From positions 18,266-82,265 of the forward strand of contig SCTS01000007.1 in the NCBI GenBank assembly GCA_004322365.1: a stretch of 64,000 bases of DNA. Reading direction: 5' to 3'. The notes under the pieces were generated by a model that did no database searches, was not told where the DNA came from, and saw only the letters and a list, made by a program, of their open reading frames with translations. This document shows positions 5,083 through 53,915 of this stretch, in pieces; position 1 is the first letter of the stretch, and each line of letters opens with the position of its first letter. The stretch is from Patescibacteria group bacterium. GTDB lineage: Bacteria > Patescibacteriota > Minisyncoccia > Phycocordibacterales > Phycocordibacteraceae. Made by a program: the position numbers and the translations under genes.

Positions 5083-5110
5083 GTATAATTTAACGGTCGT
5101 TAAATTATAC
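5083..5110. promoter_or_regulatory. 13-2-13 perfect palindrome GTATAATTTAACG-GT-CGTTAAATTATAC containing TATAAT on both arms; putative operator/promoter of 4438..5058
   Basis: Perfect inverted repeat 25 nt upstream of the ORF start. Near-identical to the palindrome at 53880-53915. Confidence 0.6.
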
Positions 5111-33694: not shown

Positions 33695-33738
33695 CCCCCA
33701 CACATCCCTAATTCGCACGAATTAGGGATGTGTGGGGG
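33695..33738. promoter_or_regulatory. 21-bp perfect inverted repeat CCCCCACACATCCCTAATTCG-CA-CGAATTAGGGATGTGTGGGGG
   Basis: Perfect 21-bp arms with a 2-nt spacer. No U-tract follows on either strand. Confidence 0.5.
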
Positions 33739-41504: not shown

Positions 41505-42329
41505 TTACCGTATTTCGTACGTCACCGAAACATTCACGATAATTTCATTCTGCCCTGTTGGTACAGAAACTTCTGGCCGTGCAGGTGCTGACGATGCGCC
41601 CATCGCCATGTCTTTTGAATAGTACATCGGAGGATACCCACCTCCTTCAGAGTAATTTACTACACGGACCAAACGAACACCGAGGTCCCCTGCAAGCCCT
41701 TTCGCCTGCGCGCGAGCCTTCTCTATTGCCTCTTTCCGAGCCTCTGCCTTCAAAGCATCGGGATCATCAACGGAAAAGTTAGGTCCGTAGAGATTGGTAA
41801 CTCCTGCTTCACCGAGAGCCGAAAGCACTTTGCCTGTGTCATCAATCTTGCGTACTTTTACTTCAACAGTCTCTGAGACGGTAAAGCCGATAATTTTTTG
41901 CTCCTGATTATAGACACAAGGAACTGCTCCGTAACATGGAGTTGGTTGTGAATAACGAGGTGAAATGTTGTATGAACTCGTCTTAATGTCCTTCTCGCTA
42001 ATTTTTAGGTCTTTCAATAGCGCGAGGGCAACATTGATTTTCTTTGCGGCAGCATCTTGTGCGTGCGCAGAAGTATCAGCGTCTTCAGAGATACCGAAAG
42101 AAACTGTGGCAATGTCTGGCGATGCAGAAACCTTTCCTTCCCCAGTGACAGTTATGACATTGGTCGGAGGTTGTGTGAGAGTGTCAAAATTAACAATGGC
42201 ATTAACTGCCTTTGCTCCAACAAAAATCGTTGCAACAACAAGGAACGCTGCAAATAATTTCATAACCAAACGGCTTTTCAAAAGTCCGTGGTGATGTAAG
42301 TGATCGTGAGTATCTTTAAGTTCATCCAT
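41505..42329 (-). CDS. SIMPL (DUF541) domain periplasmic protein
   Basis: 274 aa. N-terminal TM/signal, then …ITVTGEGKVSASPDIATVSFGI…. C-terminal …NEIIVNVSVTYEI is typical of the SIMPL family. Confidence 0.8.
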   Translation of the reverse strand: MDELKDTHDHLHHHGLLKSRLVMKLFAAFLVVATIFVGAKAVNAIVNFDTLTQPPTNVITVTGEGKVSASPDIATVSFGISEDADTSAHAQDAAAKKINVALALLKDLKISEKDIKTSSYNISPRYSQPTPCYGAVPCVYNQEQKIIGFTVSETVEVKVRKIDDTGKVLSALGEAGVTNLYGPNFSVDDPDALKAEARKEAIEKARAQAKGLAGDLGVRLVRVVNYSEGGGYPPMYYSKDMAMGASSAPARPEVSVPTGQNEIIVNVSVTYEIR

Positions 42330-42634
42330 AGAAACGAATATATTACTGCTATGAGCCTAGTATATCACTAGGCATATTTAATAAGATCGGCATGAAGCTC
42401 TTACTAAGACGAAGATCTGACCTTATCCTTACGGGCGCGAACAAGAAGGAAAGTGTCTGCGAAGTAGTGTTTTTGGGGCGAAGAGACGGAGGAAAGTTTT
42501 ACTTTCATTCTGGCTCGACGAAGCAAAAACAAGAGCGCTAGCGAACTTTCTTCGAGTGACCTGCCCGAAAGGTTTCCTTACGCGCACTGGTAACAAGTAC
42601 ATAAGTGGCAATCATGGTGGCGATGTCGTGTCCC

Positions 42635-42669
42635 CTATTCTACTTGCAAATAAATTGCAAGTAGAATAG
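42635..42669. promoter_or_regulatory. 35-bp perfect palindrome CTATTCTACTTGCAA-ATAAA-TTGCAAGTAGAATAG; putative Fur/Zur-box-like autoregulatory operator overlapping -35/-10-like hexamers
   Basis: 15-5-15 perfect inverted repeat that ends 5-10 nt before the start of the Fur-family gene. Confidence 0.6.
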
Positions 42670-42673
42670 TATA

Positions 42674-43093
42674 GTGACTATGATCGTCATCGCAGACGCC
42701 CTCAAAAAAAGAGGGTTCCGAGTAACCGCACCGCGCGTTAGCATCTTCAATGTCTTACAGAAGGCGTCGTATCCTATGAGTGTGCAGGAGGTAAAAATGG
42801 GAACGAAAGGTGTGGATACAGTGACGGTGTACCGGACACTCGAGGCGTTCAAGCAGGCAGGGCTAGTTGTACAAGTTGATCTCCAACGGGGACATGCCCT
42901 CTATGAACTTAAGGAGGGTAAAAGCGACCACCACCACATCGTGTGCATGAGTTGCAAAAAGATAGAAGATTTCACTGGATGCGATTACCAGCCGATCGCA
43001 CAGCAAGCCCTAAAAAAGTCAAAAGGATTCGCCAAGATTATCAGCCATTCACTAGAACTTTTTGGTCTCTGCGCACTATGCGCGACTAAATAA
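42674..43093 (+). CDS. zur: Fur-family metalloregulator (probably Zur)
   Basis: 139 aa: DNA-binding helix …TVYRTLEAFKQAGLV…, HHHIVCMSCKK…C..C metal sites. Lies immediately upstream of the ZIP transporter. Confidence 0.85.
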   Translation: MTMIVIADALKKRGFRVTAPRVSIFNVLQKASYPMSVQEVKMGTKGVDTVTVYRTLEAFKQAGLVVQVDLQRGHALYELKEGKSDHHHIVCMSCKKIEDFTGCDYQPIAQQALKKSKGFAKIISHSLELFGLCALCATK

Positions 43094-43101
43094 CTAACAC
43101 T

Positions 43102-43875
43102 ATGGGAACAATTGCCTACATATTTATAAGTATCAGTGCGGTGAGCTTAGTATCATTCGCCGGCATCGCCGCATTCTCGATGAGGGCAGAAATGATGAAA
43201 AAGATGCTCTTCGTTCTCGTAGGGCTCGCCGCTGGAACATTAATCGGAGACGCGGTGATACACCTAATACCTGAGGCGCTCGAAAAGATCGGTGATGAGC
43301 GAGCGTTCGGTCTTGCGCTTTTAGCAGGCGTCGTGGTCTTTTTCATCCTTGAAAAATATTTGCGCTGGCATCACGCTCATCACGGAGCCGAGGAAGATCA
43401 CGAAACGGAAGAAGCCCTTCACCACCCTAAACATCTTGCGCCGATGGTTTTATTCGCGGACGGCATCCACAATCTGCTTGACGGGGCAGTAATTGCCGCA
43501 GGGTTCCTCATCTCTCCAGTCGTCGGATTCGCAACTGTGGTCGCTGTATTCCTTCATGAGATCCCGCAGGAAATCGCTGACTACGCACTCCTCGTGCACA
43601 GCGGATTCTCACGCACGAAAGCTCTTTTCTTCAATTTTCTTTCAGCACTGACGGCATTTCTCGGAGCAGGACTCCTCCTTCTACTCCACTCCGCATTTGA
43701 GCTGGTCGGAGCATTTGCTGGAGCATTCACGGCAGGTGCATTCATCTACATCGCCGCGACAGATCTCATCCCCGAACTACATAAAACAAAAGGAGCGATG
43801 CGTGGCGCGATTGAACTTGGTGCATTCATCATCGGTATCGCACTGATGTTCTTGTTGACCTTCCTTGAAGCGTAA
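43102..43875 (+). CDS. zupT: ZIP-family (ZupT-like) divalent metal transporter
   Basis: His-rich loop HHAHHGAEEDHETEEALHH and the ZIP signature HEIPQEIADY. Confidence 0.9.
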   Translation: MGTIAYIFISISAVSLVSFAGIAAFSMRAEMMKKMLFVLVGLAAGTLIGDAVIHLIPEALEKIGDERAFGLALLAGVVVFFILEKYLRWHHAHHGAEEDHETEEALHHPKHLAPMVLFADGIHNLLDGAVIAAGFLISPVVGFATVVAVFLHEIPQEIADYALLVHSGFSRTKALFFNFLSALTAFLGAGLLLLLHSAFELVGAFAGAFTAGAFIYIAATDLIPELHKTKGAMRGAIELGAFIIGIALMFLLTFLEA

Positions 43876-43880
43876 GAATC

Positions 43881-44471
43881 TCATCCTGCAACCCGCTCGC
43901 GATACATTTGCCCTACAGAAACCCACCCTGATGCCTCACCTCGAAGTGGTATCGAGGTCATCACCTTCCATACCCCCTCTTCTTTTTTCAGGATTACTAT
44001 AGTATCGAGAGTTGATTCGAAACGAGGTCGTAGCACTCGAAGTTCGCGCCATATTCTGCGAAATTGTTTACGATTTAAAAAACGCGCCACGGACGCATGG
44101 AGCTTGTTCCCTTCAAGTGGATACGCTGGCATCCACGCAATGTTTGTGTTCAGTGCATGAATGAGACGACGCACTAAGGACACTGCTTCCGCACCCTTAT
44201 ATACATCCATATACACAGTACGAAAACCGAAGCGCCCAAATCCATCTATAACCAAAGGAGTGGATCGCTCATTCCCTGCAAACGATCGCAATACCCGCTC
44301 AACTTCCTTAATGCCTGATTCATCAGTCTCAAAAGGAGGCTTGATGGTGATGTGTGGCGGAATCCTGTCGTGGAGAGGGATGACGCGATACTTCAATGCA
44401 AGCTCGCGAGTTAATCCCGAATGATACTGTCTTGCATCCCCCGAAAGGAGGTGGGCAATGAAGTACTTCAC
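43881..44471 (-). CDS. 2H phosphoesterase (LigT / 2'-5' RNA ligase-like)
   Basis: Two H-x-T/S-x motifs (HITIK, HASVA). Confidence 0.75.
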   Translation of the reverse strand: MKYFIAHLLSGDARQYHSGLTRELALKYRVIPLHDRIPPHITIKPPFETDESGIKEVERVLRSFAGNERSTPLVIDGFGRFGFRTVYMDVYKGAEAVSLVRRLIHALNTNIAWMPAYPLEGNKLHASVARFLNRKQFRRIWRELRVLRPRFESTLDTIVILKKEEGVWKVMTSIPLRGEASGWVSVGQMYRERVAG

Positions 44472-44525
44472 TAACGACAGTATAGCAAATGCGAGACCGA
44501 GTCAGTTCTACCTCGGGGAATAAAT

Positions 44526-45524
44526 TTAAGACTTCGCTTTATTGAAACGGAGTGAGGAATAGTATGCAGCGAGAACAAACGCAAGACCAATGGTTCCAGT
44601 GATTATTTCCGGTACATCAGTAAGTAGGCTAACCCACATACTCACCGCAAGTCCAAATATTGCCCAATGAGCGCCGTGCTCCAAAAACACGAGAGTATCG
44701 AGAGTGCGTTCTCTCACCATAAAAATGGTCAGGGATCGTACAAAATAAGCGCCGATACCCAAACCTACCGCAATTACCGGCAACGCTGAGGTAAGCGCAA
44801 ACGCACCAACAACACCATCGAGTGAGAATGCGGTATCCAAAACTTCAAGATATAGGAACAGTGCAACACTGCCAGATGCCCCCACTTTTGTCTCGACAGA
44901 AAAAGCGCTCGTGATTCCTTCCATCACAATAAATACAATGACTCCAAAAACACCGGCCAATAGCACAGAGGTCTGTTCTGCGGCCGGAACAAAAAATGAA
45001 ACGGTAGCGACAGCGACGAGTGCAAGAAATATTTCTAATGCCTCAATTCTGCCCCAGCTCACCAAGTGTCTCTCAATAAACTGAATCCAGTGTTTTGTTT
45101 TATTGCTATCAAGAAAATATTTGAGAGCAACCAACATAAGAAACACTGCGCCGAACGAATGGATTGCAGGAGCAACACTTTCTAGCAACTCCCCATAGTG
45201 AGTAGGGTCAAACAAGGCCATGTGACCAATTAGCCATGGAGACATGCCTGCAATCGCTGAAACAATAATGACGGGGAGGAGGATGCGCGTACCAAATACT
45301 GCAATAAATATTCCCCATGTAAGGAAGCGTTTCTGCCACTTCTCATTCATCTTCGCAAGTACTCGCGCATTCACAACGGCATTATCAAAAGAAAGAGTTA
45401 CTTCAAGAAGTACCAACAGCACTGCGGTTATAAAAGCTGCAAGGCCGAGATAGTAATACACGAGGCCAAGGCCAATGAGAGAAATAAGAACTGAGACTCC
45501 GAAAAATTTGATTATGCTGTTCAT
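44526..45524 (-). CDS. TerC/DUF475-family integral membrane protein
   Basis: 332-aa polytopic protein with LSFDNAVVNA and …AFSLDGVVGAF… motifs. Confidence 0.75.
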   Translation of the reverse strand: MNSIIKFFGVSVLISLIGLGLVYYYLGLAAFITAVLLVLLEVTLSFDNAVVNARVLAKMNEKWQKRFLTWGIFIAVFGTRILLPVIIVSAIAGMSPWLIGHMALFDPTHYGELLESVAPAIHSFGAVFLMLVALKYFLDSNKTKHWIQFIERHLVSWGRIEALEIFLALVAVATVSFFVPAAEQTSVLLAGVFGVIVFIVMEGITSAFSVETKVGASGSVALFLYLEVLDTAFSLDGVVGAFALTSALPVIAVGLGIGAYFVRSLTIFMVRERTLDTLVFLEHGAHWAIFGLAVSMWVSLLTDVPEIITGTIGLAFVLAAYYSSLRFNKAKS

Positions 45525-45541
45525 ATATTAAAGATTTTTTA

Positions 45542-46561
45542 CTAAATCGCTTCTCTGCTTTCAGAAAAATAAACCTGTCGAGGAGGAATACCTAACATCT
45601 TTAGTCGTGTAGTGAGAAAATGCTTCATTTCTTTTTCTCCCTTGAATGCTCGAACTTTCCCTCCGATGAGCACAGCCCACTCACCAACGTCTCGCATTAC
45701 ATCTGTTTTATTAAAAACGAGATGCGTGACGCCATTCACACGAACTGCTTGCTCTATCAAATCAACATTCATCCAATTACACTGGCGTGGTCTCCCTGTC
45801 GTAGAACCATACTCTTCACCTACTCGCCGAAGCTCTTCGAATACAGGATTTTTTGGTTCAAACTTCTTGGTACCGACATAGGTCTCATACATTTTTGCGA
45901 CACCCCATACGTGGCGAACTGATTGTGGCGGCACACCATTCAAGAGGGCCCCAGCGGTGGTGCAGTGACTCGAGGTAACAAATGGGTAATCTCCCCAATC
46001 AATGTCGAGCCCGAAGCCTTGTGCTCCTTCACCTAATATGACGACCTTTTTTTTATTTTCATGAAACTCTTCGTAGAGATCGATGAGGTACGGCTTTAAT
46101 ACCTTTACATGCTCCGCACGCACACCAATGCGGGCGTACTTATCGCGATAGGCTGGACCGTTTCCTCGCTTTGTCGTGCCAATTGCCACATCAACAGAGT
46201 CTTCGTTTCTATGTGATGCAGTTATGACGTGGGTGTTTTTTGCAATAAAAATTTTACCCTTAGTCTTGATACCTCCATCCTCAAGCATCTTAATTTCTTT
46301 CAGAAATTGAATAGGGTCAACAACACATCCTGGCCCTATTATGGATTTAATGCCCCAAAAAACTCCCGCAGGGATGTGGTGCGTTATAAACTTCTTACCT
46401 TTATGAAAAATAGTATGCCCAGCGTTACATCCTCCGTTGTACCGAAGCACGTGTGTGTACTTCTTTGTCTTACACAAAAAATGAGCTACTTTGCCCTTTC
46501 CTGAATCTCCGTATTGTAAGTCAACAATTATATCAGTCTCCACTTTTGAAAATGATATCAC
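45542..46561 (-). CDS. purA: adenylosuccinate synthetase (short form, 339 aa)
   Basis: P-loop QYGDSGKGK, …GCNAGHT…, …TTGRPRQC…. Confidence 0.85.
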   Translation of the reverse strand: MISFSKVETDIIVDLQYGDSGKGKVAHFLCKTKKYTHVLRYNGGCNAGHTIFHKGKKFITHHIPAGVFWGIKSIIGPGCVVDPIQFLKEIKMLEDGGIKTKGKIFIAKNTHVITASHRNEDSVDVAIGTTKRGNGPAYRDKYARIGVRAEHVKVLKPYLIDLYEEFHENKKKVVILGEGAQGFGLDIDWGDYPFVTSSHCTTAGALLNGVPPQSVRHVWGVAKMYETYVGTKKFEPKNPVFEELRRVGEEYGSTTGRPRQCNWMNVDLIEQAVRVNGVTHLVFNKTDVMRDVGEWAVLIGGKVRAFKGEKEMKHFLTTRLKMLGIPPRQVYFSESREAI

Positions 46562-53879: not shown

Positions 53880-53915
53880 TATAGTATAATCTAACGATCG
53901 TTAGATTATACTATA
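53880..53915. promoter_or_regulatory. 17-2-17 perfect palindrome TATAGTATAATCTAACG-AT-CGTTAGATTATACTATA; putative operator/promoter of the CofE-like gene 53943..54650
   Basis: Perfect 36-bp palindrome 28 nt upstream of the ATG. The core GTATAAT[T/C]TAACG..CGTTA[A/G]ATTATAC is shared with 5083-5110. Confidence 0.6.

Follow-up and report, generated by a model that had tools for sequence, protein, structure and literature searches.

A candidate Fur-family operator of the TTGCAA-N5-TTGCAA type within a 35-bp perfect palindrome upstream of a fur-ZIP gene pair in a Patescibacteria genome

The Nur box of Streptomyces coelicolor, tTGCaa-N5-ttGCAA, has a 6-5-6 layout and was delimited by DNase footprints at four Nur-controlled promoters (An et al. 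2009, PMC2691836). In that work the recognition of the 6-5-6 layout was attributed to the His residues of the Ni-site, which tether the S1-S2 sheet (PMC2691836). A single dimer of Magnetospirillum gryphiswaldense Fur (MgFur) has been co-crystallised on TTAATTGCAAATCATTTGCAATTGC (Deng et al. 2015, PMC4506495), and in the complex R57 contacts the G and Y56 the T's of the site, while K15 enters the minor groove of the outer flank (PMC4506495). The classical boxes of Zur, Fur and PerR are built as 7-1-7 or 9-1-9 repeats, for example TGATAAT-N-ATTATCA, and the Zur box of E. coli, of about 23 bp, is bound by two dimers (PMC6103462).

The palindrome analysed here lies upstream of a Fur-family gene in a 64-kb stretch of DNA from a Patescibacteria group bacterium, which we analysed as a whole and call the window (Table 1). 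The original prediction had described it as a perfect 15-5-15 inverted repeat, and the sequence at 42635-42669 bears this out, with two 15-nt arms of 100% complementarity and a 5-nt loop. Folded as single-stranded DNA it reaches -14.7 kcal/mol, against -1.9 +/- 1.3 for shuffled sequences (z = -9.85). Arms of 15 nt are beyond chance, since the longest perfect arm was only 9-12 nt in 30 simulated windows (first-order Markov). Besides this one, the real window has 14 perfect palindromes whose arms reach 11 nt or more, mostly bidirectional terminators of the A-run/GC-stem/T-run kind; the palindrome at 42635-42669 is outside that class, its stem is AT-rich without flanking A or T runs, TATAGTGACT comes next, and it was not called in the terminator scan. 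Between its end and the regulator gene lie 4 nt if an in-frame GTG (42674) is taken as the start, or 10 nt up to the ATG (42680).

Table 1. Features of the palindrome locus in the window, and genes found beside the same box in other contigs (among the scan matches listed)
Feature	Position or locus	Strand	Remarks
Perfect palindrome, 15-5-15, 35 bp	42635..42669	no strand	CTATTCTACTTGCAA-ATAAA-TTGCAAGTAGAATAG
Left half-site TTGCAA	42644..42649	+	invariant in 12/12 orthologous loci
A/T-rich spacer/loop ATAAA, 5 bp	42650..42654	no strand	variable among orthologs
Right half-site TTGCAA	42655..42660	+	end always 19-20 nt before ATG
Alternative -10 TAGAAT	42662..42667	+	pairs with start GTG 42674
Putative -10 TAGTAT	42667..42672	+	TANNNT in same register in 10/12 orthologs
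SIMPL/DUF541 gene	41505..42329	-	divergent, upstream of palindrome
Fur-family regulator gene	42680..43093	+	Pfam FUR 1.8e-22; alternative start GTG 42674 in frame
ZIP-family metal importer	43102..43875	+	Pfam Zip 9.1e-39
Box next to fur	L016, L026, L043, L092
Box next to znuA	L018, L028, L103, L050
Box next to COG0523/CobW GTPase	L021, L044 (sequence = L120), L119, L120
Box next to ZIP without nearby fur	L101

Several of the other palindromes in the window are unusual in their own right. Two related perfect ones, GTATAAT(T/C)TAACG..CGTTA(A/G)ATTATAC at 5083-5110 and 53880-53915, present TATAAT on both strands and could be symmetric bidirectional promoters or an operator for a different regulator. 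Two perfect palindromes are very long, one of 47 bp (23-1-23) at 59517-59563 and one of 44 bp (21-2-21) at 33695-33738; they are not terminator-like, and the longer one begins within the 3' end of a tRNA-Ser gene (59434-59521).

A search with the Fur-family protein returned contigs of Candidatus Paceibacterota / Parcubacteria (CPR), the closest encoding proteins of 100% (L001), 90% (L002) and 89% (L003) identity, and more orthologs, of 44-69% identity, were collected from the protein search and contig look-ups. Their comparison brings out a 17-bp core of 6-5-6 layout, TTGCAA-ATAAA-TTGCAA at 42644-42660. In all 12 distinct orthologous sequences (53-100% protein identity) this core stands 19-20 nt upstream of the Fur-family ATG, a position that stays constant whether ZIP or ZnuABC is the transporter that follows. 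The core is exact in 11 of the 12, the exception (L011) having TTGCAT in one half, and three more fur-adjacent loci with the box came from a metagenome pattern scan, among the matches listed. The DNA to its left cannot be aligned even between relatives that are 90% identical, and the spacer itself varies (ATAAA, TTTAT, ATTAT, TTTAG, GTCAT, GTCAG, ATAAG, ATGAT, ATAAT and GTATT among the orthologs). At 44% identity (L015) we found only degenerate boxes. No further match to the core with at most one mismatch occurs in about 170 kb of ortholog loci plus the window. Within the 64-kb window, scans gave neither a second copy of an arm (up to 3 mismatches) nor a second core (0-1 mismatch), and the 5 matches with two mismatches, where 6.6 are expected, all lie inside ORFs. 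Since there is no second site within the window, the regulon in the source organism may consist of the fur-ZIP operon alone.

The predicted functional unit is thus smaller than the whole 35 bp put forward in the original prediction: it is the 17-bp core, and the outer arms are conserved in the closest clade alone. Only the window and L001, L002, L003 and L006 keep the outer 8-9 nt of the arms. Distant orthologs retain, outside the hexamers, just an adjoining (A)C...G(T), and in L007, L008 and L013 the outer pairing is gone and only the hexamer sequences persist. By this distribution, the outer 9 nt of each arm appear as a clade-specific extension. Changes within the arms are in part symmetric: in L005 two positions are altered in both arms (left TTCTAC to TCCTAT, right GTAGAA to ATAGGA), and the right arm of L001, like that of L003, has a single change without a counterpart on the left. 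Also, the loop ATAAA of the window and L001 is the exact reverse complement of the TTTAT found in L002 and L003 (3971-3975), relatives about 90% identical. Read as a single loop inversion, this flip argues that the arms interact as DNA. The outer-arm symmetry may be kept by additional flank contacts, by hairpin-templated homogenisation, or by both; flank contacts are conceivable because each MgFur monomer reads 10-11 bp. We considered a second repressor dimer bound to the outer arms and rejected it as the main reading, as ATTCTA and TAGAAT are separated by 25 bp, more than one dimer can span, and the outer hexamers are not kept beyond the close clade.

The arrangement of the genes places the palindrome in a promoter region, since the SIMPL gene diverges from it. 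The ZIP gene begins 8 nt past the fur stop codon with no terminator-like site between the two, and it is therefore probably co-transcribed with the regulator. The fur-ZIP pair is kept in L005, L006, L008 and L092, and L008 retains the wider synteny SecE ... SIMPL - YibE/F <-> fur - ZIP - LigT - TerC - PurA. A fur-znuABC arrangement is found in L007, L010, L011 (where the fur locus adjoins a TonB-dependent receptor gene) and L013, and fur-yibE/F in L015. The left hexamer occupies the place expected of a -35 element, followed by a 17-bp spacer and, in 10 of the 12 orthologs, by TANNNT, with the ATG 7-8 nt further on (there is no clean TANNNT in L008 and L013). The codon at position 42674 is GTG, GTG, ATG and ATG in the four closest loci. 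Few ORFs of the window have a recognisable ribosome-binding site, with an SD-like 4-mer upstream of 6 of 61 long ORFs, and TANNNT stands 6-7 nt before the predicted start of 18 of the 61, against about 2 at each other offset, so that leaderless mRNAs seem to be common in this genome. The fur-ZIP mRNA is probably leaderless as well, starting at 42680 (or alternatively at 42674), just outside the palindrome. It had been proposed that the transcript must initiate inside the palindrome, a claim that fares poorly here: the predicted start coincides with the start codon, 5-11 nt past the repeat. The palindrome takes in the putative -35 and, of the putative -10, just TAG (42667-42669), the remainder lying beyond its right edge. 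The right half-site falls at about -25 to -20, within the promoter spacer; the conservation of a hexamer with no promoter role argues for protein binding. Conservation of the left hexamer could be due in part to its role as -35.

Further observations concern the region to the left. In the loci in which yibE/F diverges from fur, a conserved TACAAT lies 6-7 nt before the yibE/F ATG (L005:1702-1735, L006:1167-1200, L008:2924-2945). The divergent gene thus looks leaderless too, with a predicted -35 region that would lie right beside the left arm of the box, and one operator may control both directions there. At this position yibE/F is absent from the window and its closest relatives. Given its divergent position beside fur in L005, L006 and L008, we looked with tblastn for a decayed yibE/F in the 345-bp intergenic region and found no remnant of it. 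About 175 extra bp of the SIMPL-fur intergenic region (window ~42437-42612) are shared with L001 and absent from L002 and L003, and this segment gave no Rfam match. A structured RNA at 42385-42634 was discarded, since neither strand folds better than its shuffles (z = +0.9 and -0.1), and the tRNA/tmRNA scan gave nothing near the palindrome.

The Fur-family protein, of 137/139 aa, has a Cys4 site and a DHHH motif, and an extra invariant Cys lies in its likewise invariant motif EDFTGCDY; it has no Cys before the His run and no N-terminal His ligand. It retains the G-x-[RK]-x-T-x-x-R loop, in which T16 and R19 are invariant, and its predicted DNA contacts Y51/R52 are conserved and align with Y56/R57 of Nur (PDB 3EYY chain A). 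The protein is only 30% identical to Nur, has Q and D in place of the Ni-site residues H70 and H72 and a Y/P region in place of the M-site H33, and keeps an equivalent of H126 (H123); given the identity, the Q/D and the missing His at position 33, it is no Nur ortholog. It scores under every cut-off of the NCBIfam Fur, PerR and Zur models and so enters no curated subfamily. The Zur model gives 24.9 bits against a cut-off of 167, and those for Fur and PerR score higher than that. Sequence matches in the PDB place it about equidistant from Fur, PerR, Zur and Nur.

We consider it likely that the Fur-family repressor encoded next to the palindrome has its operator within it and would thereby autoregulate a leaderless fur-ZIP transcript. 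In the proposed mechanism, one metal-loaded dimer would bind the 17-bp core; in each hexamer, the G and the T's would be recognised by Y51 and R52 of the recognition helix, and R14 of the N-terminal loop would contact the minor groove just outside the hexamer. With the left hexamer serving as -35 and the right one lying in the spacer, a bound repressor would occlude both and block RNA polymerase. When metal is plentiful, the fur-ZIP transcript would be switched off, giving negative autoregulation together with repression of metal uptake.

The box is also found beside metal genes elsewhere. A metagenome scan with the 16-base pattern ACTTGCAA-N5-TTGCAAGT yielded at least 120 loci covering 704 kb, and genes beside the box were confirmed by Pfam. 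Among the matches listed, 13 loci have the box no more than 110 nt from a fur, znuA, ZIP or COG0523 gene and facing it, and the G+C content of these loci ranges from 34% to 70%. The whole of the 704 kb listed holds 18 such genes (binomial P ~3e-15, a value that overstates independence because L044 equals L120 in sequence and several other loci are related). No ribosomal paralogue stands beside the box among the matches listed. Most of the matches listed are unrelated, namely 11-nt tandem repeats and a recurrent marine terminator-like hairpin; we therefore set aside the scan as a census of the regulon, and only the enrichment beside zinc genes is usable. The recurrent hairpin, tagCACTTGCAA-ataaa-TTGCAAGTG plus a T run, sits in low-GC contigs (mostly 34-42% G+C; L022, L025, L032, L033, L047, L067, L070, L076, L088, L089, L098, L104, L125 and L129 among those listed). 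It shares the core by coincidence, so that the 16-base pattern alone is not specific.

The company of fur, znuA, ZIP and COG0523 genes at that enrichment indicates a Zur-like zinc regulon. The original prediction had called for more copies by metal genes; this expectation failed within the 64-kb window and succeeded in other organisms (znuA, ZIP, COG0523). ZnuA of L103 has the His/Asp-rich loop typical of zinc-specific ZnuA. In the fur operons of L010, L011 and L013, ZnuA shows a three-His ligand pattern (EPHD, DPH and SHAAFGY/SHEAFGY, with TAHAAFGY in L011), and ZnuA of L007 is without the third of these motifs. Such a three-His pattern is typical of zinc-type binding proteins. Taken together, the sequence evidence points to zinc as the most likely metal sensed and to a Zur-like regulator. 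A protein of 468-471 aa with no Pfam hit is encoded divergently from fur in three loci (L007:1469-2884, L010:3470-4885, L026:416-1822); its gene has a box of its own, ATGCAA-N5-TTGCAT or, in L026, AATTGCAA-attac-TTGCAATT, and the protein is a candidate member of the regulon.

Other readings of the same site deserve to be weighed. The operator and its mechanism might be as proposed and the metal another one, nickel (as for a Nur) or iron or manganese (Fur, Mur), which ZIP and ZnuA would then import. The same box serves the nickel-responsive Nur and makes up the core of the iron-Fur co-crystal DNA, the window protein scores better on Fur/PerR than on Zur models, Mn and Fe transporters belong to the ZIP and PF01297 families as well, and YibE/F genes, whose role is unassigned, are linked to the fur locus. 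Nickel sits badly with the substituted and absent Nur ligands, and no nickel or sodF genes were found near the fur locus. More generally, a box before COG0523 genes and before a ZnuA with a His-rich loop carries zinc hallmarks, to which the three-His pattern in the operon ZnuA proteins adds. We therefore think another metal unlikely.

Readings that dispense with the repressor have less to recommend them. The palindrome might be promoter alone, TTGCAA acting as -35 and TAGAAT or TAGTAT as -10, and perhaps the symmetric relic of a bidirectional promoter; the left TTGCAA is indeed in -35 register and is picked as -35-like by the promoter scan, and other palindromes of the window have TATAAT on both strands. 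Yet the right TTGCAA is invariant at a place with no conserved promoter element, and the 6-5-6 unit recurs before unrelated zinc genes in other phyla and matches sites of Fur-family proteins that have been footprinted and crystallised. Moreover, the mirror image of the -10 in the left arm is TAGGGG, which is not a -10, and for the same reason a divergent promoter in the left arm was rejected. This makes a repressor-free promoter very improbable. As for a hairpin in RNA or DNA, acting as terminator, as a 5'-UTR element for stability or translation, or as a recombination site, we give it hardly any credence. The fold is very stable, perfect palindromes serving as terminators abound in the genome, and the loop flip suggests that the arms interact; but the AT-rich stem without A or T runs differs from the terminators of the window and stands between divergent genes, and distant orthologs (L007, L008, L013) keep the hexamer sequence while losing the outer pairing. 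Searches of Rfam, over the whole window at gathering thresholds and over 42250-42750 at E up to 10, gave no credible family at or beside the palindrome, which is present in a single copy in the window and would not be transcribed at all if the mRNA is leaderless. The proposal of an operator for the adjacent Fur-family protein, controlling the regulator-ZIP pair, is by contrast upheld by the constant position of the conserved core, by its identity with sites defined by experiment and by boxes at zinc genes elsewhere.

The module may also move between genomes. A 316-kb contig (L026) is 97.9% identical to window positions 43962-46480 (LigT, TerC, PurA), and to the left of a break inside the LigT 3' end the two differ in the module they carry (L026:1-1900, window 42330-43962). 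In L026 it consists of the 468-aa gene, two TTGCAA-N5-TTGCAA boxes and a P0007-type fur in opposite orientation; in the window it is fur-ZIP. From these sequences, a regulator-operator-transporter module seems to have been exchanged between near-identical genomes.

To our knowledge, almost no transcription-factor sites are known in CPR bacteria, and TTGCAA-N5-TTGCAA would be a concrete candidate operator for a metal regulator of this group. The locus also illustrates how regulation could be fitted onto the leaderless promoters that seem common in the genome, and simple motif scanning could predict zinc regulons in CPR and other uncultivated genomes. A bolder proposal, which we find plausible but put at slightly under an even chance, is that an undescribed Zur-like class acts on a Nur-type 6-5-6 TTGCAA box, here within a hairpin-homogenised 35-bp palindrome and in a module swapped between L026 and the window. 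If so, this class would be widespread, occurring in Paceibacterota/CPR and also in several lineages of low and high G+C that are unrelated to one another. Hairpin-templated homogenisation would have left its traces in the flipped loop and in the double substitutions placed symmetrically in the arms. Recognition of the 6-5-6 layout would then be independent of the nickel site of Nur, contrary to the rationale of An et al. 2009 (PMC2691836). The window family, which would use this layout without the Nur Ni-site, argues, as does MgFur, against the Ni-site being necessary, and the findings point to the 6-5-6 Nur-type box as a solution general to the Fur family, one that includes zinc-type regulons and is not specific to nickel.

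Set beside the described systems, the site shows the hexamers and spacing of a solved Fur-family complex, overlaps a core promoter (as placed by the predicted start) and travels with fur genes, as Fur-family operators do. The classical Zur, Fur and PerR boxes are likewise palindromic, overlap the -35 and serve znuABC, ZIP and COG0523 regulons (PMC6103462). They differ in layout, since in the window family the conserved blocks are parted by 5 weakly conserved bases in place of the single base of an n-1-n repeat, and in their specificity positions, which are GATA, CGTA or TATA in the classical boxes and GCAA here. In some orthologs the core can also be read as n-1-n, TGCAAAT-N-ATTTGCA, with 5 of 7 positions in common with the Fur half-site. 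A literature search found a Zur box paired with TTGCAA in no paper of the collection searched except that on Nur, where the Zur box is given in contrast. The MgFur co-crystal core, TTGCAA-ATCAT-TTGCAA, has the same hexamers and spacing as the window core and takes one dimer per site, as predicted here, although the outer flank is TTAA in that DNA and CTAC in the window, and the natural MgFur feoAB1 operator, TCGCAA-CTCAT-TCGCAA (PMC4506495), does not have TTGCAA hexamers. MgFur itself is an iron Fur, distantly related to the window protein (E = 2.7e-10). The Nur box has the same 17-bp 6-5-6 consensus as the core at 42644-42660, and shares with the window site a Fur-family dimer, an overlap with the promoter and repression (all three predicted here), as well as the YR contact residues. 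The Nur regulon comprises nikABCDE, nikMNOQ and sodF, whereas the box type of the window fronts ZIP or ZnuABC genes, and unlike the Nur box the window site extends to 15-nt arms. The original prediction that the site differs from the classical Fur and Zur boxes is thus right as regards their n-1-n layout and does not hold as a claim of novelty: judged by its sequence, the motif is one already known, a core of the Nur-box / MgFur-feoAB1 type, here in a CPR lineage.
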